A stretch of DNA of 64,000 nt from an uncultured delta proteobacterium (GTDB lineage Bacteria; Myxococcota_A; Polyangia; Haliangiales; Haliangiaceae). The DNA lies in assembly GCA_963848295.1 (NCBI GenBank), contig CAWKDB010000010.1, forward strand, positions 4,640,001 through 4,704,000, in the 5' to 3' direction. The translations under genes and the position numbers were made by a program. The notes under the pieces are model-generated. The model was not told the origin of the DNA. It saw only the letters and a program-made list of their open reading frames with translations, and did not search any database. Below, one piece after another: positions 32,011 through 48,522 of this stretch. How positions within the stretch are numbered: the first letter of the stretch is position 1; the number at the start of each line of letters is the position of its first letter.

Positions 32011-32559
32011 CTAGTCGCCTTGCACGACCGAGATAACCTCGGCGAGGTCGGCGTCTGGCAAGCGCGAGTTCATGCGCAAGCCCTCGATCAGATCGGCGAT
32101 GCCTTCGTCGTTCTTGTACGAGTGAGCGCACGCGGGGTGCAAATAGCCGGCGCCGGCTTGGACGGTCGCACCTACCGTGATCTCGCGCTCGACCGCGACG
32201 CGCAAGCTGCCCTTCTCGATCGGCTGCTCGCACTGCATGCACTTCGCACGGCCGGTCGGCGCGCGATCGGCGAACGGCGTGCCACTCGGCTTCGCGTGAC
32301 CACCGGCGATCGCCTTCGCCATCGCGGCGTCGAGCTCGGCGCGATTGCCGACCGAACCGCCGTAGCCATCGAGCGCGGCCTTGAGCTCGGCCGGTAGCTT
32401 CTCGGCCGCGCACATCACGTGGTGCCACTGTAGACTCGGGCCGTCGCCGAACGCGTTCGCCGCTTCGATGCCGAGCCGGAGCTCGCCCTTCGCGATCGGC
32501 TTCTTGCAAGTGCGGCAGCTCGCGCGTCCTGACTTCGCTTCTTCGATCACGTTCGCCAT
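32011..32559 (-). CDS. Stand-alone tandem PARP-type zinc-finger protein
   Basis: EEAKSGRASCRTCKKPIAKGELRLG..WHHVMC and DRAPTGRAKCMQCEQPIEKGSLRV..YLHPAC, both Cx2C..Hx2C with the AKS/TGRAxC signature of zf-PARP. Confidence 0.85.
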   Translation of the reverse strand: MANVIEEAKSGRASCRTCKKPIAKGELRLGIEAANAFGDGPSLQWHHVMCAAEKLPAELKAALDGYGGSVGNRAELDAAMAKAIAGGHAKPSGTPFADRAPTGRAKCMQCEQPIEKGSLRVAVEREITVGATVQAGAGYLHPACAHSYKNDEGIADLIEGLRMNSRLPDADLAEVISVVQGD

Positions 32560-32612
32560 CGGGCCGACCATACCGCGGGGCGCGGGAGGCGGCGCAAGGC
32601 ACCCGCCGAACG

Positions 32613-33346: not shown

Positions 33347-36911
<3,565 letters not shown>

Positions 36912-36916
36912 GTGCC

Positions 36917-39466
36917 ATGCCGACCGTTTGCGCTTCGCGCTGCGGTCTCGTGGTCGCCGCTCTCGTCTCGTGCTCGGCGCCGACCGTGCCGCCGCATCCG
37001 TCGCCCGCGGCTCCCGCGACCGTCGCGCGCGGCGCATCGGGGCTCGGTCGCCGGTCGCTTGCCCGATGGCGTCGTGCCGCTCGCGTACGACCTGCGGCTC
37101 GACGTCGATCCGGATCAGCCGACGTTCCGCGGCCACGTCGCGATTCGCATCCGCCTCGCGGCGCCGAGCGATCGGATCTGGCTCCACGCTGTCGACCTCG
37201 ACATCGAGCACGCCGCTGCGACCGGCGTCGGCGAGCTGCACGACGTGCCTCGGCCACAGGCGAAGTGCGCGCGCTCGTCGCCGATCGGCCGCTGCCGGCA
37301 GGCGAGGTCACGATGGAGCTCGACTACGTCGGCCGGGTCGGCGACGAGTGGAAGGGCCTGTTCCGCCAGAGCTTCGCGGATCGCTGGTTCTTGATCTCAC
37401 AGGCCGAATCGATCTTCGCGCGCCGGATCGTGCCGTGCTTCGACGAGCCGCGGTGGAAGACGCCGTGGACCGTAACGATCGTGCGCGCCGGCGGGGTTGG
37501 TCGCGTTGTCGAACGCGCCGCAGACGACCGACACCGAGCTCGCCGACGGCCGTCACGAGGTTCACTTCATGCCGACGCGGCCGCTGCCGCCGTACCTCGT
37601 CGCGATCGCGGTCGGGCCATTCGAGCTCGTCGATGGTGGCACGATCGGACGCGCGCACCTCCCGTTGCGATTCGCGGTGCTGCCCGGCGATCGCGACTCG
37701 CGTGCTCGCGACGGTCGGCCATATGGCGGAGCTGGTCTCCGCGCTCGAAGACTATCTCGACGATCCGCTGCCGAACGCGAAGCTCGACCTCGTCGACGTG
37801 CCGCACTTGTTCGGCGCGATGGAGCACCCCGGTCTGATCACGTTCGAGCGCACGATCCTCGCGAGCAACGGATCGCCCGAAGACATCGACGAGTTCGACC
37901 GGACCGTCGGCCACGAGCTCGCGCACCAATGGTTCGGCAACTCGGTCACGCCGGCGTGGTGGGACGACTTGTGGCTCGCCGAAGCGTTCGCGTCGTTTCT
38001 CGGCGATCGCGTCGCCGCGACGTATGGCACCGACCGGCCGTTTCAACGCGCCCAGCTGCGCGAGCACGCGCTCGCGGTCGACTCCGGTCCGGATGCGCGG
38101 CCGCTGCGCCGCGGCGTCACCGACGATCCGGAAGGCGCGTTCGACGCGATCTCCTACGACAAGGGCGAGATCGTGCTCGCGACGTTCGAGCACTGGCTCG
38201 GCGCCGACCGGTTTCGGTCCGCGCTGCGCAGCTACGTCCGCGCCCATCGCGAAGGCACCGCGACGGTCGATGATGTCGTCGCGGCCGTCACCGCCGTGTC
38301 GAGCCCGGCGCTCGGCGCGGCGTTGAAGTTCTATGTCGAGCATGTCGGGCCACCGGTCGTCGCACTGACGCTGCGCTGCGACACGACGCCCCCGGTGATC
38401 GAGGCCGAGGCCGCGAGCGGTGGCGCGATCCCGTTGTGCGTACGGACGCCGGCGGGTCGGGTCATGCGCGCTCGTCGCCAAGCGCACCGAGATTCCGCTC
38501 GCCACGTGCCCGGCGTGGGTCGTCGGCGACGACGGCGCTGGGTATTACCTCGTCGGCTGGCACGGCGGCGAAGCCGCGATACCACCGCTCGTGCAACTCG
38601 CGCCCGGCGAGCGCGTCGCGTTCGGCGATGACGTCGCGGCTGCGGTCACGCGCGGCGATACCACGCTCGCGGTCGCGCTCGGCCGGCTCGATCAGCTCGC
38701 ACGACCGCACGATCGGTTCGCGCAGCTCGGCGCGCTCGCGATCGCGCGCGCGATCGACCGGTACGTCGCAGAGGCGGCGCGACCGGCATGGACGCAATGG
38801 CTCTACGATCATGTCGTCGCTCGCGATCTCGAGCTCGTGCGGCTGCCGCAGCGCCCTGAGGACTTCGCCGTGCGCGCGGCGATCGCCGATCTCGTCACCG
38901 CCGATCAGCTCCCGCCGGCAGTCACGCGCGCGATGCGCGACGCGGTCGACCACGGCGAGCTCGAGCCGGCGACCGTCGCGTTTGCAGCAGCGACCGGAGG
39001 TGCTGCGATCTTCAGCCAGATCGTCGGTGTCGCGACCGCGACGCCGGACGTCGACGACCGCGCCCAGCTGTTCGGCCTGCTCGGAGAGCTCGGGCCGGAG
39101 CAGATCTCACCCACGATCGACCTGTTGATCGCCGGCACGGTGCCGAGCAAAGCGGTGTGGTCTGCGATCGCGCGGTTTCTCGAGCGCGGCGCGACCCGCC
39201 AAGCGGCCTGGCAAGCGATCGCGAAGCGCTTGCCCGAGATCATCGATCGGCTGACCGGCGCGCAGCTCGCGACCGCCGTGAGCGCGACCGCCGAGCTGTG
39301 CGATCGCGGTGCGCTCGCCGAGGTTCGCGCGGGATTCGAGCCGCACGTCGCGGAGATTCCCGATGGCCGACGCGTGCTCGACCGAACGTTCGCCGAGATC
39401 GAGCGATGTGCCGCGCGCCGCGCCGCGCTCGGCGACGTCGCCGCCGCGCTCAAGCTGGTAAAGTGA
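36917..39466 (+). CDS. M1 family aminopeptidase lipoprotein with ERAP1-like C-terminal domain, frameshifted
   Basis: LVSC lipobox, ARRIVPCFDEP, GAMEH, HELAHQWFGN, WLAEAFA, ISYDKG. Confidence 0.85.
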
Positions 39467-39470
39467 CGCC

Positions 39471-41132
39471 GTGAATCGCGCGCTCGTCGCCGTCGCGCTC
39501 GTCTCGTGCGGCGGCAAGTCCACCGCGATCGAGACGATCGCCGCGAAGCGCGCACCGATCGTGATCACGGTCGGCGCGCCTGGGTTCGACGCCGCCGAGG
39601 TCGAGTCGGGAGTCGCGTCCGTCATCGAGTCGGCGGTCGCCGACGTCCCTGGCATCGAGCACATCCGCAGCGAGAGCCGCGACGGCCGAGCGCGGATCGC
39701 GATCGAGCTCGCCGCGAGCGCCGATCCGGCCGCCGCGAGCGCAGCGGTGGAGGACCGGATCGCGGGTGTGCAGCGCACGTTGCCGCCGGCGATCGACGCC
39801 CCGGTGATGTGCATCGGCTGGCGCGCCGATGCGGCGGTCGTGCGCTACACGCTCGCCGGTCCGTTCGCGATGGCGGCATTGCGCGAGGCCGCCGCGGCGA
39901 CGATCGCCGAACCGGTCGCGGCGGTGAGCGGCGTCGCCGGACTCGACATCTGTGGCGGCTCGGACCCCGCGCTCATGATCTACGCAGACCCCGCGAAGCT
40001 CGCCAACTCCGGTGTGACCGTGACCGAGCTCGCGACCGCGCTGAGGGCGTCGCACGCGATGTCGATCCTCGATCTGTCCGGGCTCAGAGACATCGTGGTC
40101 GCGAAGCGCGGCGGCGCGGTCGTCCGCCTATCAGATGTCGCGCTGGTTTCGGATCAAGGCCCTCCGCCGCGGTGCCATACGCTCGACGAGCACAGCGATG
40201 CCGCGATCGAAGGCGTCGTCTACGCACAGGGCGGCATCGATCCGCGGACCGTTCGCGCGGCTGCCCTTGCCGCGATCGAGAAGGTCGGCGCCACGCTGCC
40301 ATCGGGGATGGTGCTCGAAGTGATGCCCGAGGACAAACCGGCCGCGCTCCTCGGGCTGACCGCGCCCGACGTTGCGCCCGCCGCGCGCCTCGACCAGCTG
40401 CGCAGGGTCCGCGATGCGTTGCTCGCGGCGGGCGCTCAGCACGTCGTGCTTGCCGAAGGCGTGCGCGATCCGCGGACCGGCCTCGCCGAGAACGCGGTCG
40501 AGATCCGCGTTTGGCCGGCGAGCGTCGAGCAAGCCGCGCTCGCGCGACTCGCGGACGTGCCGGGGCTCGTCGTCGCTCGCGCCGATGCGAAGATCATCGC
40601 GATCCGCGGACCCGAGCTCACCAAGCTCCATGACATGGCCGGCGCGCTCGCCGGGCGGCTCGAGGCCGCGGGTGTCGCGACGCTCGGTCGAGTCGGCGAT
40701 GGCGGGGTGGCTCGCCTCGAGCTCCACATCGATCGCGCGGCCGCCGCCGATCTCGGCGTACCCGTGCAAGCGATCAGCGACACGTTCGGGGCCGCGATCG
40801 ATGGCATCGACCTCGGCCAGATTCTGATCGCCGGCAACCGCCGGCCGATCATGCTCATCGTGGGTGCGCCCACCGACGATGGAGGAGATCCGGTCCAACG
40901 ATTGCGCAGTCTCATGGTACGCGGCATGGACGTACCCGACGCGATGCGAGGCGCTGCGGTGCCGCTGAACCAGCTCGCGGGCGTGTCGCGCGCATTGGCG
41001 CCCGCGACGATCTATCACGTCGATCGTCAGCGCTGGGTCGGCGTGCGCATGGCCGGTGACGGCGGCGACGCGGCCCGCAAGGTGATCGCGGCGTTCGCAG
41101 CGCCGCCGGGCTATCGCGTCGAGATCGAGTGA
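39471..41132 (+). CDS. Lipoprotein consisting of RND (AcrB/CzcA-like) periplasmic domains without TM helices
   Basis: MNRALVAVALVSC lipobox, APGFDAAEVESGVASVIE, LPPAIDAP, DPAKLANSGVTVTELATAL, VRLSDVA, LPSG, IDRAAAADLGV, VPLNQLA, IYHVDRQR, PPGYRVE. No hydrophobic TM segments. Confidence 0.8.
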   Translation: MNRALVAVALVSCGGKSTAIETIAAKRAPIVITVGAPGFDAAEVESGVASVIESAVADVPGIEHIRSESRDGRARIAIELAASADPAAASAAVEDRIAGVQRTLPPAIDAPVMCIGWRADAAVVRYTLAGPFAMAALREAAAATIAEPVAAVSGVAGLDICGGSDPALMIYADPAKLANSGVTVTELATALRASHAMSILDLSGLRDIVVAKRGGAVVRLSDVALVSDQGPPPRCHTLDEHSDAAIEGVVYAQGGIDPRTVRAAALAAIEKVGATLPSGMVLEVMPEDKPAALLGLTAPDVAPAARLDQLRRVRDALLAAGAQHVVLAEGVRDPRTGLAENAVEIRVWPASVEQAALARLADVPGLVVARADAKIIAIRGPELTKLHDMAGALAGRLEAAGVATLGRVGDGGVARLELHIDRAAAADLGVPVQAISDTFGAAIDGIDLGQILIAGNRRPIMLIVGAPTDDGGDPVQRLRSLMVRGMDVPDAMRGAAVPLNQLAGVSRALAPATIYHVDRQRWVGVRMAGDGGDAARKVIAAFAAPPGYRVEIE

Positions 41133-41133
41133 G

Positions 41134-41598
41134 TCACTTCGCGAGCGCGGCCGGGTCGGTCACGCCGACATCGGGAAAGCCGGCCTTGACCGCGGTGTCC
41201 ATTGCCGCGATCAGCGATTGATACGCGATCGGATGCGCGTCGCTGCTCACCGCCGCGATCATCACCGGCACCGGATCGCCAGACTTGAGATCTTTGAGCG
41301 TCGTCTCGAGCTGGGCCCAGCCGTAGTCCTCGCCGCGAGGGATCCGCGTGATCGTGCGCTCGGGGTAGGACGTCACCTGGACATCGTCGGCTTCGATCAA
41401 CACGCCGACCCACGGCGGCTCGGTCTTGATCGCCGCTTCGCCACCCTTCTGTGGCTCGTTGCGCAGGTGCGCGACGTTGACCCATGCCGCGGTGACGAGC
41501 AAGAACGCGGTCAAGCAGCTCATCACGTCGATGAACGGCACGATGTTGAGATCGATGTTGACGGAGCCCTTCGAGCCCGAGCCTAGAGATGACGCCAT
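41134..41598 (-). CDS. ExbD/TolR family protein, orphan AglQ-like paralog
   Basis: LNIVPFIDVMSCLTAFLLVTA TM with conserved Asp, YQSLIAAMDTAVKAGFPDVG; very similar to 45149..45652. Confidence 0.85.
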   Translation of the reverse strand: MASSLGSGSKGSVNIDLNIVPFIDVMSCLTAFLLVTAAWVNVAHLRNEPQKGGEAAIKTEPPWVGVLIEADDVQVTSYPERTITRIPRGEDYGWAQLETTLKDLKSGDPVPVMIAAVSSDAHPIAYQSLIAAMDTAVKAGFPDVGVTDPAALAK

Positions 41599-41605
41599 GC
41601 GCGGG

Positions 41606-41632
41606 AAGACACGCACGACCTTCGTCGGTTGC
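41606..41632 (-). promoter_or_regulatory. Putative ECF sigma promoter (GCAACC-N16-GTCTT) directly before the orphan ExbD start
   Basis: AAC..GTC pattern with 16-nt spacer, 7 nt before the ATG. Confidence 0.35.
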
Positions 41633-41636
41633 GCCG

Positions 41637-42314
41637 CTACCCGAACCGCGCCGCGTGCCAAGCCGGGAGCTCGCGCAGCGAAGCGAGCACGCCATCGGCG
41701 TGACCGAGCCGGTCGGCGGGATCGCTGCCGGTCGCGACCGCGCACACCACCGCACCGCAGGCGCGAGCGGCAGCGATGTCGTGCGTCGTATCGCCGACCA
41801 CGACGACCTCGTTCGCCCGCACGCCCGCGCGTTCGATCGCTCGGGCGACCAGCTCTCCGCGCACCCGCGAATCGCAGCCATAACCGCCTACCTCGAACCG
41901 ATCATCGAGCCCGGCCGCCGCGAGCTTGGCCTCGGCGCCGGCGCGCACGTTGCCGGTCGCGATCCCGAGTCGGGTCCGCGGCTCGAGATAATCGAGTGCT
42001 TCGACCGCGCCGTCGAGCACGCGCACCCCACCGGCGGCGAGCCGTGCGCGCAGGTGCGGTAGATACGCGTCGAGGAACGCGGCGCGTTCGGGCTCGGACG
42101 CCGGCCGGCCGAGCCGCGCCACGAACATCTCGTCGATCAACGCGGGATCGGTCTTGCCCCCGTAGCGCATGCCGCGACTCGCGTCGGCGACGCCGTGTTG
42201 CGCGTGCATCACCGCATCGAACGCCGCGCGCCCGCTGCCGCGAGCATCGAGCAGCGTGCCGTCGATGTCGAACAGGTAGAGCGCGCCGCGAGGCCGATCG
42301 GGGCTACTTCGCAC
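41637..42314 (-). CDS. HAD family hydrolase/phosphatase
   Basis: LFDIDGTL, GKTD, IATGN, VVGDTTHD, VATG. Confidence 0.9.
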   Translation of the reverse strand: MRSSPDRPRGALYLFDIDGTLLDARGSGRAAFDAVMHAQHGVADASRGMRYGGKTDPALIDEMFVARLGRPASEPERAAFLDAYLPHLRARLAAGGVRVLDGAVEALDYLEPRTRLGIATGNVRAGAEAKLAAAGLDDRFEVGGYGCDSRVRGELVARAIERAGVRANEVVVVGDTTHDIAAARACGAVVCAVATGSDPADRLGHADGVLASLRELPAWHAARFG

Positions 42315-43548
42315 TGCACTTGGGATCGCGCGAGCAGCGCGCCGCCGCGTCGATCAACCCGTCGAACGTGTCGCGCATCGCCCACGCCTTGTCCTTGAAC
42401 GAAGTGATCGAGCTCGCGCGCAGGAGGCCGTTGCCGAACGCATCGCGCACGCCTTTGCACGCGCCGGCTTGCTCGAGCTTCAAGGCGGTACCTTCGTAGA
42501 CGCGGAAGCACTTCTCGAACCCCTTGGGATCTTTGCCGGTGATCTGATCGTTGTAGACCGGAGCGCCGAGCTCGATCGCGTCGTTGATCTGATGGATCGT
42601 CTCGACGATATCCTGCGCGCGGCAGCCATCCCATACGGCGAGCTCGTGGTGCGGCACCTCGCGCTGCGGCGCCGTCGTGTCATCGCTGCCGCCTTCTTCA
42701 TCCTCGGTCCGGGGCTTCGTCGCCTTCGCGAACTCCTCGACGCTGACCGGCGCCGGGAGGTGCGCGACGAGCCCGCGGAGATACTTCGACGGCACGGCGA
42801 TGTTGATGTTCTGACCTCGCGGTTGGATACCCATCGTCACGCCGACGACCTCGCCGGCCTGGTTGAACAGCGCGCCGCCACTCGAGCCCTGCGAGATCGG
42901 GACGGAGATCTGGAGCACGTGGAACTCGGCGCCGCAGCCGAGCACGCGGCCGATCTCGGACTCCTCTTCGCTCAGCGTGCCCTGCTGTTGCTTGCGCTCG
43001 AGGTCGCGGATCAGCTCGTCGGGAGAATGGTCCGGCCCCATCTTCGCGAGCAGCTGCGTGCGCATCTCGACATCGTGATCGCTGCACCACGGACGGATGC
43101 CGCTGATCAGGCCGTCGGACACCGAGTTCTCGTATTCACCGCCGAGCGGGTTGCCGATCGCATAGACCCGCTCTCCCGGGCTCAGCCGATCCGAGTCGCC
43201 GATCGTGAGCGCGGCCGGCAACGGCTTCTTGTTCGAGATCCGGAGCAGCGCGAGATCCCGTCCCGGATCGATGTTCGCGATCTGCGTCACCGGATAGACG
43301 ACGCCGTCTTGAAACCGGACTTGGATCTCGGACGTCCCGGCGATCACGTGCAGGTTCGTCGCGATCAACCCGGCCTTGTCGACGACAAAGCCACTGCCGA
43401 TCCGCTGGTCCCCCGCCTCGATCAGGACGACGGCAGGGCTCGAGTGCCGAAACACGTCCTGTGCCGACAGCTTCGCAGCGGGGCGATTCGCGCTGGGCCC
43501 GCCGCAGTTGAACGCGAGAGCTGCAGCGACAACAGCGTAACGCGTCAT
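42304..43548 (-). CDS. Trypsin-like (S1) serine protease lipoprotein
   Basis: AFNC lipobox, GSGFVV, TNLHVI (His), DLALL (Asp), SQGSSGG (Ser), helical C-terminal domain. Confidence 0.88.
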   Translation of the reverse strand: MTRYAVVAAALAFNCGGPSANRPAAKLSAQDVFRHSSPAVVLIEAGDQRIGSGFVVDKAGLIATNLHVIAGTSEIQVRFQDGVVYPVTQIANIDPGRDLALLRISNKKPLPAALTIGDSDRLSPGERVYAIGNPLGGEYENSVSDGLISGIRPWCSDHDVEMRTQLLAKMGPDHSPDELIRDLERKQQQGTLSEEESEIGRVLGCGAEFHVLQISVPISQGSSGGALFNQAGEVVGVTMGIQPRGQNINIAVPSKYLRGLVAHLPAPVSVEEFAKATKPRTEDEEGGSDDTTAPQREVPHHELAVWDGCRAQDIVETIHQINDAIELGAPVYNDQITGKDPKGFEKCFRVYEGTALKLEQAGACKGVRDAFGNGLLRASSITSFKDKAWAMRDTFDGLIDAAARCSRDPKCSAK

Positions 43549-43602
43549 CGCTAGATCATACCTCGGACACCGCTCGACGACCACGGCACCGTTTGGGGCG
43601 AA

Positions 43603-44220
43603 TTAGGGCGCGGCCGAGCCCGACGAGCCGCTGCCGCTCGGCGGTGGCACATCGTGGCCACCGAGGCGAATCTCGCGCAGGCCACGCTCGCCGGCCTTGC
43701 GAAAACCGATCGGATCGCGGTGCGGATCGATGCCGGACTTCACGCCGGCGTCGAGGTGCTCTTGATAGAGCTGCATGCGGACCTCTTCCCAGCTCGGGCA
43801 CACCGCTTGGTCGTCGGTGCGTTGCGCGTCATGGCACACGTTGAGCGCGCGGTTCGCGTAGTCGAGTGCGGGGATGACGTCGAGGTGATCGACGTACGCG
43901 ACACTGGTCGCCAGCAACGCGCGCCATTGCGTGGGCGAGTGCTTCGTTCGGGCGCTGCCGCGCACCGCGACATCGATCGCCCAGTCTTTGAACCCAGCGG
44001 CATCGAGCTTGCGGGTGTAGTCCTCGAGCGCTCGGCCATCATCGGGCTTCGCGATCGTGCGCGCCTCGGCGAGCGCGAGCTCGAACTGTGCGGCGGGCGT
44101 GTTCTTCTTGCCCCACAGGACCGAGAAACCGAACATCTCGCGCGCCGGGAGCACGACCGTCACCAACACGATGGTGATGATTCCGAGATCGACGATCCCG
44201 ATGAAGCGCGGCAGCCGCAT
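43603..44220 (-). CDS. Membrane-anchored helical (TPR-like) hypothetical protein
   Basis: N-terminal TM, helical pattern, typical codon usage. Confidence 0.65.
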   Translation of the reverse strand: MRLPRFIGIVDLGIITIVLVTVVLPAREMFGFSVLWGKKNTPAAQFELALAEARTIAKPDDGRALEDYTRKLDAAGFKDWAIDVAVRGSARTKHSPTQWRALLATSVAYVDHLDVIPALDYANRALNVCHDAQRTDDQAVCPSWEEVRMQLYQEHLDAGVKSGIDPHRDPIGFRKAGERGLREIRLGGHDVPPPSGSGSSGSAAP

Positions 44221-44465: not shown

Positions 44466-45107
44466 ATGTTGACTGCTATTTCGACCGCGTTCCACAAAGG
44501 CGGATGGGGCATGTGGCCCATCCTTTTCACCTCGGTCGTGACCATCGCGATCATCGTGGAACGCGCGGTGTATCTGTTCCGCGCTTCGGTCGACAAAGAC
44601 AAGCTGCTCGCGTTGCTCAAGAGCCAAGTCATGTCGGGCAACGTCCAGGGCGCCATCAAGGTGTGCTCGGGTAACCCGACGCCGATGACCCGGATCGTCC
44701 AGGCCGGTCTCATGAAGTTCAATAAGAGTGACGATGAAGTCCAGGCTGCGATGGACGAAGCCGCGCTCCGCGAGCTACCGAAGATCAACGCGCGCACGCC
44801 GTACCTGGCGATGACCGCGAACTTCGCCGTGATGGCAGGCCTCCTGGGAACCATCTCGGGCATGATCAAGTCGTTCGGCTCGGTCGGTAATCAAGAGGGT
44901 GGCAACCAGGCGACCGAGCTCGCGAACGGCATCTCGGAAGCGCTGAACTGCACCGCGTTCGGTATCGGTACGTCGCTCGTCGGCCTGCTCGGGTTCTCGC
45001 TGCTCCAGGGCAAGACCACGCACGTCGTCGACGACATCAACGAAGTGACGGTCCAGGTCGTCAACCTCGTGACGACGCACCGCGCACAGATGCAGCCTCA
45101 GTCGTAA
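44466..45107 (+). CDS. aglR: MotA/TolQ/ExbB proton channel, AglR-like
   Basis: GGWGMWPI..IIVER, GLLGTISGMIKSF, LANGISEALNCTAFG, GGAGG RBS. Symbol inferred from operon context. Confidence 0.85.
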   Translation: MLTAISTAFHKGGWGMWPILFTSVVTIAIIVERAVYLFRASVDKDKLLALLKSQVMSGNVQGAIKVCSGNPTPMTRIVQAGLMKFNKSDDEVQAAMDEAALRELPKINARTPYLAMTANFAVMAGLLGTISGMIKSFGSVGNQEGGNQATELANGISEALNCTAFGIGTSLVGLLGFSLLQGKTTHVVDDINEVTVQVVNLVTTHRAQMQPQS

Positions 45108-45148
45108 GGACTCCTCGAACCTAGAAACTCTAGCGAGGAGGACCACTC

Positions 45149-45652
45149 ATGGGCGCATCATTAGGAACAGGCGATAAGAAGAGCGTCAACGTCGAGCTCA
45201 ACATCGTCCCGTTCATCGATCTGATGAGCTGCTTGACCGCCTTCCTGCTGGTCACGGCGGTCTGGGTCAACATCGCCCAGATCAACATCCAGCCGAAGGG
45301 CAAGTCGCGCGACATGACCACGGTCGTCACCGAAGACGACAAGGTCATCCTGTCGATACTCGTGCAGGCCGATCGCATCACGATCGGTCTGTCTCGCCTC
45401 GACCAGTTCTTTCCGATCACGAAGATCGGCGAGGACCAGGACTGGGTGAAGTTCGAGTCGACGCTCAAGGAACAGAAAGCTTCGTCGTACTTCACGGAGC
45501 GCACGGACCTCGAGATCGCGGCTGAATCGACGACCGCGCAGCCGGTCAAGTACCAAGACATCATCCACGCCATGGACATCGCCATCAAGGTGGGGTTCCT
45601 CGACGTCGGACTCACCGACCCCGCCGGACTTACGGCGAAGCCGAGCATGTAG
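45149..45652 (+). CDS. aglQ: ExbD/TolR family, AglQ-like
   Basis: LNIVPFIDLMSCLTAFLL, YQDIIHAMD; first of two ExbD genes. Confidence 0.8.
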   Translation: MGASLGTGDKKSVNVELNIVPFIDLMSCLTAFLLVTAVWVNIAQINIQPKGKSRDMTTVVTEDDKVILSILVQADRITIGLSRLDQFFPITKIGEDQDWVKFESTLKEQKASSYFTERTDLEIAAESTTAQPVKYQDIIHAMDIAIKVGFLDVGLTDPAGLTAKPSM

Positions 45653-45661
45653 GAGGCGAAG

Positions 45662-46276
45662 ATGCCGGTACATTCAGCAGGCCCGCGCCTCTACAAGTCG
45701 ATCAAGTTCAAACAGCTGGTCAAAGGTCACGGCTCGGCCGCGGCCGGCGGCCGGTCGTCGAACATCGCGCTCAACCTGACGCCGTTCGTCGACATGATGA
45801 CGATCCTCGTCACGTTCTTGCTGATGGTGTTCTCGTCGTCCGGTCAGCTGCTCCAAGCGCAAAAGGGCCTCGAGCTGCCGAAGGCGGACTCGAAGGATAC
45901 GTTGCAGGAGGCGCCGGTCATCATCGTGACCAAGACCGACATCACCTATAAGGGGGTCGGCGTCGTGACGGTGGAGAACGCGCTCAAAGATGATTCGCCG
46001 AAGATCGACGCGCTGTCGGAGCGGCTGACCGCCGATGCCGAGAAGATCAAAGCGGACGTCGATGGTGGCTCGACCCATTATCCGAAGGATCTGATCAAGT
46101 CCTGCGAAGAAGCCGAGAAGAACCAACGCCAGCCGGCCGGAAAGATCTGCCCGAAGGGCCTCGCGATCCTTCAGGCCGACGAGGGTACCGACGCGCGTAT
46201 CATCAATAAAATCGTCATCACGGCGAAAGCCTCCGGTTTCGATAACCTGTTGTTCGCCGTCAAGAACAAGAACTAG
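45662..46276 (+). CDS. aglS: ExbD/TolR family, AglS-like
   Basis: LNLTPFVDMMTILVTFLL, LELPKA, LQADEG, GFDNLLFAV. Confidence 0.8.
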   Translation: MPVHSAGPRLYKSIKFKQLVKGHGSAAAGGRSSNIALNLTPFVDMMTILVTFLLMVFSSSGQLLQAQKGLELPKADSKDTLQEAPVIIVTKTDITYKGVGVVTVENALKDDSPKIDALSERLTADAEKIKADVDGGSTHYPKDLIKSCEEAEKNQRQPAGKICPKGLAILQADEGTDARIINKIVITAKASGFDNLLFAVKNKN

Positions 46277-46284
46277 GGGACGAC

Positions 46285-48522
46285 ATGACTCGACTCGACC
46301 GTCTGCTCGGCGGGGTCGTGCTGGCCTGCCTACTCGTGAGCCTCGCCGGCTGCCCGGATGATCAGTACAAGGCCAGCACCTGGACCAAGAAGCTCAATGA
46401 TCCGAAGGACGGCGCGCTCGCGCTGCAGAAGCTGGAGCAGCTCGGCGATCCGAGCGCGATTCCGGCGATCGGCGATGCGTGGAAGAGCTCCGGCCGTCCC
46501 GAGGGGCTGCTGCAAGTCATCATCTCGCTCGCGCGGCCACTGACTCCCGACCAAGCGGCGAAGGAGTTCTATACCGACTACCAGACGACCGGACGCCCTG
46601 CGAGCTGGGCCGCGGCGTTGCCGTACCTGACCGAAGCGGTTGCCGAAGTCGATGAAGCGAGCCCGCGCCAGGTCGAGAGTGCGGCCAAAGCCGCCGAAGC
46701 GATCGGCAAAGCGGGGCTGAGCGATGGCCTTGACGCGCTCGCGGAGCTCGCGAAGAAGCCGGTGACCGAGAAGCTGCTCGATGCCCAGATGGCGGCGATC
46801 CGCGCGATGGGCAACTTCACGCAGCCCGCCGACAAGACGAAGGCGGTCGCGGCGCTGAAGACGATCATCGAGCGCGAGCCGCCCGCGAACCCGCGGACCG
46901 AGAAGGACGCGGCGAAGCAGCGCTTGCTCGTCGTGACCTACACGATGTTCCAGAAGACGACCGCCGCGGCGATCAACTCGGTCGGCGACATGCGCTCGCC
47001 CGACGCGACCGAGGCGATCGCGCTCGCGATGTTCCGGACGCCCGATCTGTTCGGGTTCTGTCGCCGCGCGCTCGTCGCGGCCGGCCCTGGTGCCGAGAAG
47101 ATGATGCGCGAGATCCTGCGTGGCGAGAACAAGCCGGTCAATGACCTGTTCCTCGCGAAGAAGCTCGACAAGTACTGCGGCGACGCCGGCGACTACAAGC
47201 CCGAGCAGTGCTCGCCGCTCGGGGCGAAGGACTTCTACGCGGCGGTCGTGCTCGGCGACTTCTACGATCCGACGTCGGTCGGCGATCTGCTGACCGCGCT
47301 CAAGCGGCCGATGCTGCCGCAGTACTACAACGACGATCAGCCCAGCGGCTCGACGAACTACACCGCGATTTTCTCGGCGCTCAAGAAGATCGGCTCGGCC
47401 GAGGCGGCTCCGATCGTGCGCGCGATGTGGGACGTCAGCGCGCCCGCCCCGAAGGCGCCGAAGCGAGGCGCGAAGCCCGCAGCGGCTGCTGCGCCCGAGG
47501 AGGGTGGCGACCGCGGCGTCATCCGCACGCTCGCCGTCGATGCCTATCCGTTCCTAGCGCGCGATAGCTCGGCGGCGCCCGCGCTCGCGAAGATCGCAGA
47601 TAGCCCCGGCGACAACGGTCTGCGCGCGAGTGCAGCCGCTGCGTTTGCTCGGCTCACGACAGATGCGAAGGACATCGACGTGCTCCAGCACATGGCGCAG
47701 CTCCAGTTCGACGTTGCCAAGAAGAACGCGGATATCGCGGCGAAGGAGAAGGACAAGGCGACCGCCGCCGACAAGGACTTCGAGACCGTGACGCAGCAGC
47801 GCAACGCCGCGAAGGCGGGATTGCAAAAGCTAATCCACGATCCGTCGAAGACCGACGCTCAGAAGAGAGAAGCGAAGGACGCCGACAAGAAGTTCGAGGA
47901 CGACTACAAGGCCGAGAAGAAGAAGCACGCCGAGCTGACCGGCGCGTTCCATCAAGCGACCGACAACGCGAAGGTGTTCAAGTCGTTCGGCCGGCAGTTC
48001 CAGAGCCACGTCGGTCGCATCGTCGTCGCGCTGCGCTGCAAGCAAGACCTCAACTGCTACGTCAAGACGCTCACGCTCACGCCTGACCAGGCCGCGAACG
48101 ACAGCGCGCCGTACATCAAGGACATCAAAGACTGGACCGCCGAAGAGAAAGGCGCCCTGGTCGACGCCGAGGTCGAGCGCGCGATGCTCGAGATCGGCAA
48201 GCGTGGCACGGCCGCGGCGGGGTTGACCGATCAGCTGCTCGAGGCAGCGAAGTCCGATGACCATGGCGTGCGCGAGAGCGTGCTGCTCGCGCTCCCGAAG
48301 ATCGCGAAGGTGCCGTGCGCGAACTGCGAAGCGAAGCTCGACGAAGCGATCAAGGCCGGCGAGGGCAAGAGCACGGTGCGGGACCTCACCGTCGAGACCC
48401 AGATGCTACGGAACTACTTCTCGTGGGCCGGCGGGAAGACGCCGAGCGCTCCACCGCCGCCGTCGTCCGACGATGGTGCCGGGGCTCCGCCCACGAAGGC
48501 GCCGAAGAAGAAGGCGAAGTAG
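46285..48522 (+). CDS. HEAT-repeat lipoprotein with coiled-coil insert
   Basis: LAGC lipobox, repeated HEAT-like helices (ALQKLEQLGDPSAIPAI, AAINSVGDM, VRESVLLALPK), Lys/Asp-rich coiled coil. Confidence 0.75.
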   Translation: MTRLDRLLGGVVLACLLVSLAGCPDDQYKASTWTKKLNDPKDGALALQKLEQLGDPSAIPAIGDAWKSSGRPEGLLQVIISLARPLTPDQAAKEFYTDYQTTGRPASWAAALPYLTEAVAEVDEASPRQVESAAKAAEAIGKAGLSDGLDALAELAKKPVTEKLLDAQMAAIRAMGNFTQPADKTKAVAALKTIIEREPPANPRTEKDAAKQRLLVVTYTMFQKTTAAAINSVGDMRSPDATEAIALAMFRTPDLFGFCRRALVAAGPGAEKMMREILRGENKPVNDLFLAKKLDKYCGDAGDYKPEQCSPLGAKDFYAAVVLGDFYDPTSVGDLLTALKRPMLPQYYNDDQPSGSTNYTAIFSALKKIGSAEAAPIVRAMWDVSAPAPKAPKRGAKPAAAAAPEEGGDRGVIRTLAVDAYPFLARDSSAAPALAKIADSPGDNGLRASAAAAFARLTTDAKDIDVLQHMAQLQFDVAKKNADIAAKEKDKATAADKDFETVTQQRNAAKAGLQKLIHDPSKTDAQKREAKDADKKFEDDYKAEKKKHAELTGAFHQATDNAKVFKSFGRQFQSHVGRIVVALRCKQDLNCYVKTLTLTPDQAANDSAPYIKDIKDWTAEEKGALVDAEVERAMLEIGKRGTAAAGLTDQLLEAAKSDDHGVRESVLLALPKIAKVPCANCEAKLDEAIKAGEGKSTVRDLTVETQMLRNYFSWAGGKTPSAPPPPSSDDGAGAPPTKAPKKKAK

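Follow-up and report, generated by a model that had tools for sequence, protein, structure and literature searches.

The genome of an uncultured delta proteobacterium of the Haliangiaceae contains a gene for a predicted lipoprotein that is built on the periplasmic head fold of RND efflux permeases and has no membrane domain. The gene lies in the window analyzed here, a stretch of 64,000 nucleotides (assembly GCA_963848295.1, contig CAWKDB010000010.1). All six head subdomains of an RND permease (PF00873), PN1, PN2, PC1, PC2, DN and DC, are present in the gene product, and the twelve transmembrane helices are missing. The proton-relay residues of RND pumps sit in TM4 and TM10, and the segments carrying them are absent. 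Having neither helices, relay, inter-subunit loop nor pump operon, the protein is outside the RND permeases, though built on their head. To our knowledge, RND heads are known only within proton-driven pumps, and a membrane-free head only as a crystallographers' construct. No description of a natural one was found in the titles and abstract beginnings of open-licence PMC and bioRxiv articles, and searches by terms in excerpts of a 2021 review (PMC8277102) found none. Membrane-free RND head lipoproteins represent a real, conserved and apparently undescribed variant.

The reading frame starts with GTG and contains no internal stop codon. It encodes the intact 553-aa protein noted in the preliminary description, and all sequence motifs quoted there were found in the same order. 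A Pfam scan detected only ACR_tran (E 6.6e-46), covering model positions 42-210 and 677-831. GC3 (0.86, compared to 0.83-0.87 in four neighbours) and codon score (0.198, neighbour range 0.154-0.322) are those of the surroundings. The assembly of this genome (G000) comprises 7.8 Mb in 11 contigs. Upstream, at 33528-38500, the genes for acyl-CoA carboxylase and M1 peptidase are split over several frames, as are several pump genes elsewhere in the genome; these splits are likely assembly indel errors, since relatives have those genes whole. With frameshifts so close to the gene, it had to be excluded that the gene itself arose in the assembly from a pump gene that was collapsed or wrongly joined. 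One contig from a public soil run spans the stop codon (41059-41387) without differences, and this run may be the source sample of the assembly. A second public-run contig spans start codon and lipobox (39374-39520) with 17 differences. No RNA run was listed among the sequencing runs matching the gene, and none of the listed public-run contigs bridges the internal loop junction, which, like the frameshifted neighbours and pump genes, would fit an artefact. However, the gene product can be aligned over its entire length with two database proteins (549-550 aa, 64-68% identity), and the orthologous locus of three other genomes (G008, G112, G114) holds the same gene. These independent homologues refute an artefact, which is almost certainly not what the gene is.

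Table 1. Features of the gene and its direct neighbours (coordinates of the window; aa, residues of the gene product).
Feature	Coordinates	Strand	Basis or remark
M1 aminopeptidase lipoprotein gene, upstream; at least three frames here, whole in two relatives	36917..39466	+	ORFs and Pfam
Whole gene, membrane-free RND head lipoprotein	39471..41132	+	553 aa
Lipoprotein signal peptide with lipobox Cys13; predicted lipid anchor replacing TM1	39471..39509	+	sequence motif
PN1 porter subdomain, aa 28-117	39552..39821	+	profile alignment and model
PN2, first half, aa 118-165, with Cys161 (codon 39951-39953) at AcrD/AcrB 178	39822..39965	+	profile alignment and model
DN docking subdomain, aa 166-228; about 19 inter-subunit loop residues missing after aa 197	39966..40154	+	alignments
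PN2, second half, aa 229-284, with Cys235 (codon 40173-40175) at AcrD/AcrB 277	40155..40322	+	profile alignment and model
Junction, aa 285-290, site of the absent pump TM2-TM7	40323..40340	+	profile alignment and model
PC1 subdomain, aa about 291-370	40341..40583	+	model secondary structure; alignment with ZneA 560-649
PC2 first half, DC docking subdomain and PC2 second half, aa 372-553	40584..41129	+	profile alignment and model
ExbD/TolR-family gene, convergent	41134..41598	-	stop 1 nt from the stop of the gene

It had been proposed that a lipobox took the place of TM1 and that TM2-TM7 and TM8-TM12 were cut out at domain borders. Alignments with AcrB, ZneA and CusA agree with this: in a profile of 25 family rows, positions 26-290 correspond to AcrB 40-331 and positions 275-515 to ZneA 560-820, and the chain terminates at the point where a pump would enter TM8. 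Both periplasmic loops are present in the order described before; the earlier list of their contents, however, did not include PC1 (Table 1). At the sequence level PC1 has the poorest support of all subdomains (hhalign E 0.0006, a probability of just 28%). Because the two loops are internal repeats, segments were misplaced when whole pumps or fragments containing PC1 were aligned, and the final alignment was built from N-loop and PC2/DC fragments. The structure predicted for the gene product reached a pLDDT of 92.8 and a pTM of 0.89; 72 of the 98 rows in its alignment were pump fragments, which favours a pump-like answer, and PC1 scored 84-98 with family rows only. A model from a three-row alignment (pLDDT 41) was not used. 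Foldseek comparison of the model returned chains of AcrBper as top matches (TM 0.76-0.78, E 1e-37). Superposition with VIA-align gave Z 38.4 and 3.0 Å over 521 residues for CusA (span 38-859) and Z 37.4 for ZneA. The predicted fold matches RND porter and docking domains, and the model suggests that the protein adopts the shape of an entire pump head. Prediction of a two-copy complex (residues 29-528) scored 0.01, which counts neither way.

The lipoprotein signal seen earlier at the N-terminus was found again by motif, with Cys13 following a hydrophobic run. This cysteine is kept in 26/26 rows of the family alignment, and a lipobox was recognized by motif in 84 of the 111 database members listed (see below). 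Several of the listed members without the motif have mis-called starts, whereas in others the lipobox is replaced by a single N-terminal anchor helix or by a plain signal peptide (P0104, P0122, P0126, P0172, P0180, P0088, P0118 and P0150). P0099 has about 270 additional residues at its N-terminus. Inner-membrane retention is signalled by Asp at position +2 in E. coli and by Lys in Myxococcus, according to excerpts of PMC3222651. Position +2 is variable in the 84 listed lipobox members (Gly 27, Arg 22, His 11, Lys 3, Asp 1), thus neither signal is kept. It is plausible that the signal peptide was taken from an adaptor gene. Past the signal, the maximal 19-residue Kyte-Doolittle mean is 1.47, compared to 5-13 peaks of at least 1.7 in each of 66 pump ORFs, several of them cut by locus ends. 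Neither hydropathy, by which helices were called throughout, nor the model shows a helix after the signal, and tblastn with the 66 pumps recovered no membrane-segment remnants in any frame of 37001-44000 (five stray matches outside the ORF, E 0.19-0.82). The protein is thus free of transmembrane helices, as claimed before.

The same helix-free design is found in AcrBper, an engineered two-loop fusion of E. coli AcrB (PDB 5EN5, 5ENS, 5ENT, 7B8R-T). In excerpts of PMC8617272 this man-made protein is a soluble trimer in which both loop and aromatic pocket are retained. The gene product, in contrast, is natural and carries a lipobox; it has no loop, its PC1 is shortened, two cysteines occupy pocket positions, and it is 16% identical to AcrBper. 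The precedent shows that an RND head alone can fold and bind ligands. The heavy-metal pumps CusA, ZneA and CzcA (TIGR00914) gave the best superposition and are clearly closest to 35 of the 111 listed members; unlike them, the gene product has no membrane domain, and its TIGR00914 score is 93 with a cut-off of 701. No CusB- or CusC-like genes were found beside the family gene. MdtB is the best match of the family profile among solved structures (E 3e-81), and NF033617 of the MdtB/MdtC and HAE1 permeases (NF033617, TIGR00915, PF00873) is matched by 25/25 family rows. Nevertheless, the gene product scores 115 bits compared to the NCBIfam whole-protein cut-off of 1250 and has half the length, without helices or proton relay. 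In the AcrB delta-loop mutant the same loop region is out, with 17 residues deleted compared to about 19 in the gene product; excerpts of PMC3230630 describe this laboratory mutant as a folded, inactive monomer that keeps the membrane domain.

Family members were collected with HMMER from 1.84 billion representatives. The best 150 clusters listed comprised 111 two-loop, helix-free proteins (several of them search seeds), 35 pumps and four partial sequences. PN1, PN2, DN, DC and PC2 are kept in all 111 by the selection of this set, and the median identity to the gene product is 27%. The closest homologues are not pumps: the best pumps align at 24-34% identity over 18-51% of the length, and longer database proteins (27 matches) are ordinary pumps aligned over part of the length. 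Myxococcota homologues of similar length, junctions and synteny, which the preliminary description had suggested looking for, thus do exist, with a locus shared by three other genomes. Within the phylum, the design occurs in at least 30 genomes (four copies cut by contig ends, one, in G013, frameshifted): in at least 19 of 91 genomes of the genus, at least 7 of 47 others of the family and at least 2 of 9 others of the order, and outside the class in at least two genomes of a draw of 401 from the phylum. These counts are lower bounds: scoring was limited to the best 3-26 candidates of each genome, and many of the assemblies are incomplete. This genome has just one such gene; G112 holds two members (L101, L110) unlike in pump resemblance. 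Member L066 (G010, marked unpublished) contributes one row to alignments A2-A6 and the trees and one short form, and no conclusion rests on it alone. Word-index searches found only 3-4 members, a pattern scan of genome contigs yielded one 39-residue pump fragment, the scan of metagenome contigs gave no match, and the clusters listed in the ESM Atlas were ACR_tran fragments and one without a name.

The DN segment has 52 aa in the gene product compared to 71-77 aa in 24/24 pumps. It is short (60 aa or less) in 75 of the 111 listed members, near full length in 30 and intermediate in 6. The gene product is not expected to trimerize, since it has lost the loop on which trimer formation of E. coli AcrB depends; as 30 listed members keep a near full-length loop, a monomeric state would not be universal. 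Cys161 aligns with Tyr178 and Cys235 with Tyr277 of AcrD. Both cysteines are present in 82 of the listed members, one in 5 and neither in 24, and the pair occurs in 0/24 pumps. PC1 is present in 90 listed members, reduced in 4 and absent in 17, and the pair is found in 79 of the 90 and in none of the 17. A disulfide between Cys161 and Cys235 is inferred from their co-occurrence. In excerpts of PMC8617272, F178 lines the deep pocket of AcrB, and F277A in AdeB changes resistance. The deep pocket residues of AcrB (F136, F178, Y327, F610, F615, F617 and F628) are not kept in the gene product; positions 136, 178, 277 and 327 (AcrD numbering) are Ala, Cys, Cys and Pro. PC1 of the gene product contains no Phe, and the aromatic content is 2.3% compared to 4.5% in pump heads. 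The loss of the pocket and the absence of PC1 from 17 listed members argue against a shared small-molecule pocket. The two cysteines are the only clear family-specific conserved residues, thus no catalytic or binding motif stands out.

The family changes fast. At shared loci, identity of the gene was lower than that of its neighbours in the pairs G000/G112 (41% versus 89-95%), G078/G082 (partial; 41% versus 88-91%), G008/G114 (30% versus 66-92%) and G158/G150 (34% versus 74-79%), and closer to it in G026/G089 (84% versus 88-98%) and G144/G146 (90% versus 92-99%, with one lipoprotein at 68%). A pump head showed a dN/dS of 0.07 and family genes 0.39-0.74; within the same two genomes, dN was 0.089 for the family gene but 0.012 for the complete head of a pump. 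In one genome pair, other accessory lipoproteins and secreted proteins had dN/dS values of 0.34-0.72 compared to 0.39 for the gene. Since other lipoproteins change as fast, speed alone is no proof of an arms race, and dN/dS was clearly above 1 in no pair with a reliable alignment. For G000/G112, dS was 0.83 (near saturation) compared to 0.34-0.39 for neighbours, and this doubling hints at allele replacement. The values of 0.39 and 0.60 obtained by a simple count in two close pairs, together with the occurrence of the design in 111 of the 150 listed clusters, agree with the earlier proposal of selected repurposing rather than decay, and support a helix-free head design that has been maintained, as judged from sequence comparison.

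The 111 listed members resemble different pumps: 35 are CzcA-type, 16 MdtBC-type, 17 form a third group and one a fourth, and 42 have no clear best match. The subgroups resemble different pumps also by region, and trees built per subgroup placed one as sister of MdtBC (support 99) and one inside CzcA (support 92). The cysteine pair is common to CzcA-like (30/35) and MdtBC-like (14/16) listed members. The full tree did not recover the family as one clade, and an AU test with 13 of 28 family rows, long branches left out, rejected a single clade (p 0.029), which is moderate evidence because branches are long and compositions differ. The gene product belongs to the third group by score and lies near CzcA in trees, so the placement of its own subgroup among the pumps is unsure. 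Members of unlike pump resemblance occupy one shared locus. Either repeated origin with convergence or a single origin with conversion from resident pumps would fit. Comparison of the gene with this genome's own pumps by blastn returned short chance matches only and no recent DNA exchange.

As noted before, the gene starts 4 nt after the M1 aminopeptidase gene, measured from the TGA of its C-terminal frame. Compared to G008 (L061:3412-5991), the C-terminal domain of this peptidase is 36% and the catalytic part 52% identical; the locus therefore has two adjacent variable lipoproteins. Further upstream, 32014-32571 encodes a small protein whose G008 orthologue contains two PARP-type zinc fingers (PF00645) and which is kept upstream in G008 and G114. 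The ExbD gene downstream is convergent as described, but is not an orphan, since it is a 46% identical paralogue of the ExbD at 45149-45652, part of a complete MotA/ExbB-ExbD-ExbD cluster 3.5 kb away. This cluster (44466-48522) comprises a MotA/ExbB gene (96% to G008), two ExbD-family genes and a gene for a 745-aa lipoprotein without NCBIfam match, is low in GC and well conserved, and presumably recalls the myxobacterial AglRQS motor. The extra ExbD gene (L061:7666-8127; L103) points towards the family gene here and in G112, has the same orientation as that gene in G008, and is missing from G114; this small gene has thus flipped or been lost at the locus. The M1 peptidase lies upstream in 4 and the ExbD paralogue is found in 3 of the 29 loci listed, hence neither is a family partner, and both were discarded as dedicated partners. 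Upstream genes differ by locus, with trpA in 3 of the 29 and topA/trmFO, kinases or a Rieske protein elsewhere; the upstream gene is 4 nt or less away in 10 of the 29. The family gene overlaps the trpA stop by 4 nt in three genomes (L062, L100 and L102) and is the last gene of the tryptophan operon there. Adaptor, TolC and pump families were sought among 150 neighbour proteins, with contigs ending near some loci, and none was found, in line with the earlier claim for the own locus. The 150 comprise 9 proteins at the own locus, 69 of 128 and 72 of 100 called genes, the others being syntenic repeats or further away. At the pump loci of this genome, an adaptor-like gene adjoins 9 of 10 (judged by eye). 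MdtB/MdtC pairs in one frame of more than 2,100 codons (L208 in G015, L206 in G005, L006 in G000; 1,545 in G000) suggest a fused gene or an in-frame tandem.

The gene product is predicted to be unable to pump, because the proton relay is gone. We tentatively propose, with a probability of about 40%, that the predicted lipoprotein works as a non-transporting decoy for outside molecules aimed at pump heads. It would be exported and lipidated at Cys13, and the disulfide would join the two halves of PN2, replacing the stability that a pump gains from its membrane domain and trimer. Such a head would stay monomeric without the loop, would not transport without the relay, and could bind RND-receptor protein toxins or small toxic ligands, which would drive its fast change. 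This reading comes from what the members keep: the outer head shape, and not the pocket, loop or operon, while almost all non-structural residues vary. We know of no RND-targeting CDI-type toxin in these organisms. In E. coli, AcrB is the entry receptor for several CDI toxins, as stated in excerpts of PMC11630599, a precedent that shows a possible target and is not proof of a decoy. One of these toxins requires AcrB even if made in the cytosol (PMC11630599, excerpts), so that the contact need not be the periplasmic head. That the phylum repeatedly made RND genes into free-standing, lipid-anchored, loop-less, disulfide-locked decoys that copy the heads of CzcA, MdtBC and other pumps, swapped or diversified at fixed loci and absorbing toxins or antibiotics of competitors, is a doubtful extension of this proposal.

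The retained docking and porter subdomains (DN, DC, PN1, PN2 and PC2 in 111/111 listed members by selection of the set, PC1 being dispensable) and the likeness of subgroups to resident pump types would suit a modulator of the cell's own pumps, whose docking surfaces titrate adaptors or whose loop-less head caps a trimer by accepting a pump loop. We consider this unlikely, since a link to pump operons is absent in the loci scanned, a fixed self partner should slow the gene, whose rate of change is instead some sevenfold that of a pump head from the same genomes, and DC is the least conserved subdomain among the closest homologues (0.52-0.58 compared to 0.57-0.90 elsewhere). Unlikely, too, is a binding protein or scaffold repurposed outside pump biology, for instance for handing nutrients or peptides to an uptake system or the adjoining peptidase: the stable predicted fold, the new putative disulfide, the frequent position as tightly coupled last gene of unrelated operons and the M1 peptidase upstream in four listed loci fit such a role, but the neighbours vary between loci and no catalytic or binding motif is evident apart from the two cysteines. 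The high dN/dS, the patchy presence (at least 28 of 147 genomes of the order), the stepwise loss of loop and PC1 and the frameshifted copy could also mark a weakly constrained relic, i.e., pump genes recurrently losing their helices, gaining a signal peptide and persisting with little function. Against this improbable reading stand open frames in at least 111 clusters at a median of 27% identity to the gene product, as well as junctions that fall cleanly on domain borders and the gain of two cysteines that co-vary, features unlike neutral decay.

A natural family of at least 111 clusters means that the RND head has a use of its own. Database names of AcrB or CusA stand on 5 of the 14 members listed, and efflux-gene counts in resistome surveys are therefore inflated. 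Being small, likely monomeric and secreted, such proteins should be readily purified, so that they open a direct experimental route to how RND heads bind ligands, how the loop governs trimer assembly and how toxins target pumps. If the phylum-wide extension of the decoy proposal is true, decoy heads would constitute a previously unseen kind of envelope defence and offer a natural scaffold for tunable inhibitors of efflux assemblies.
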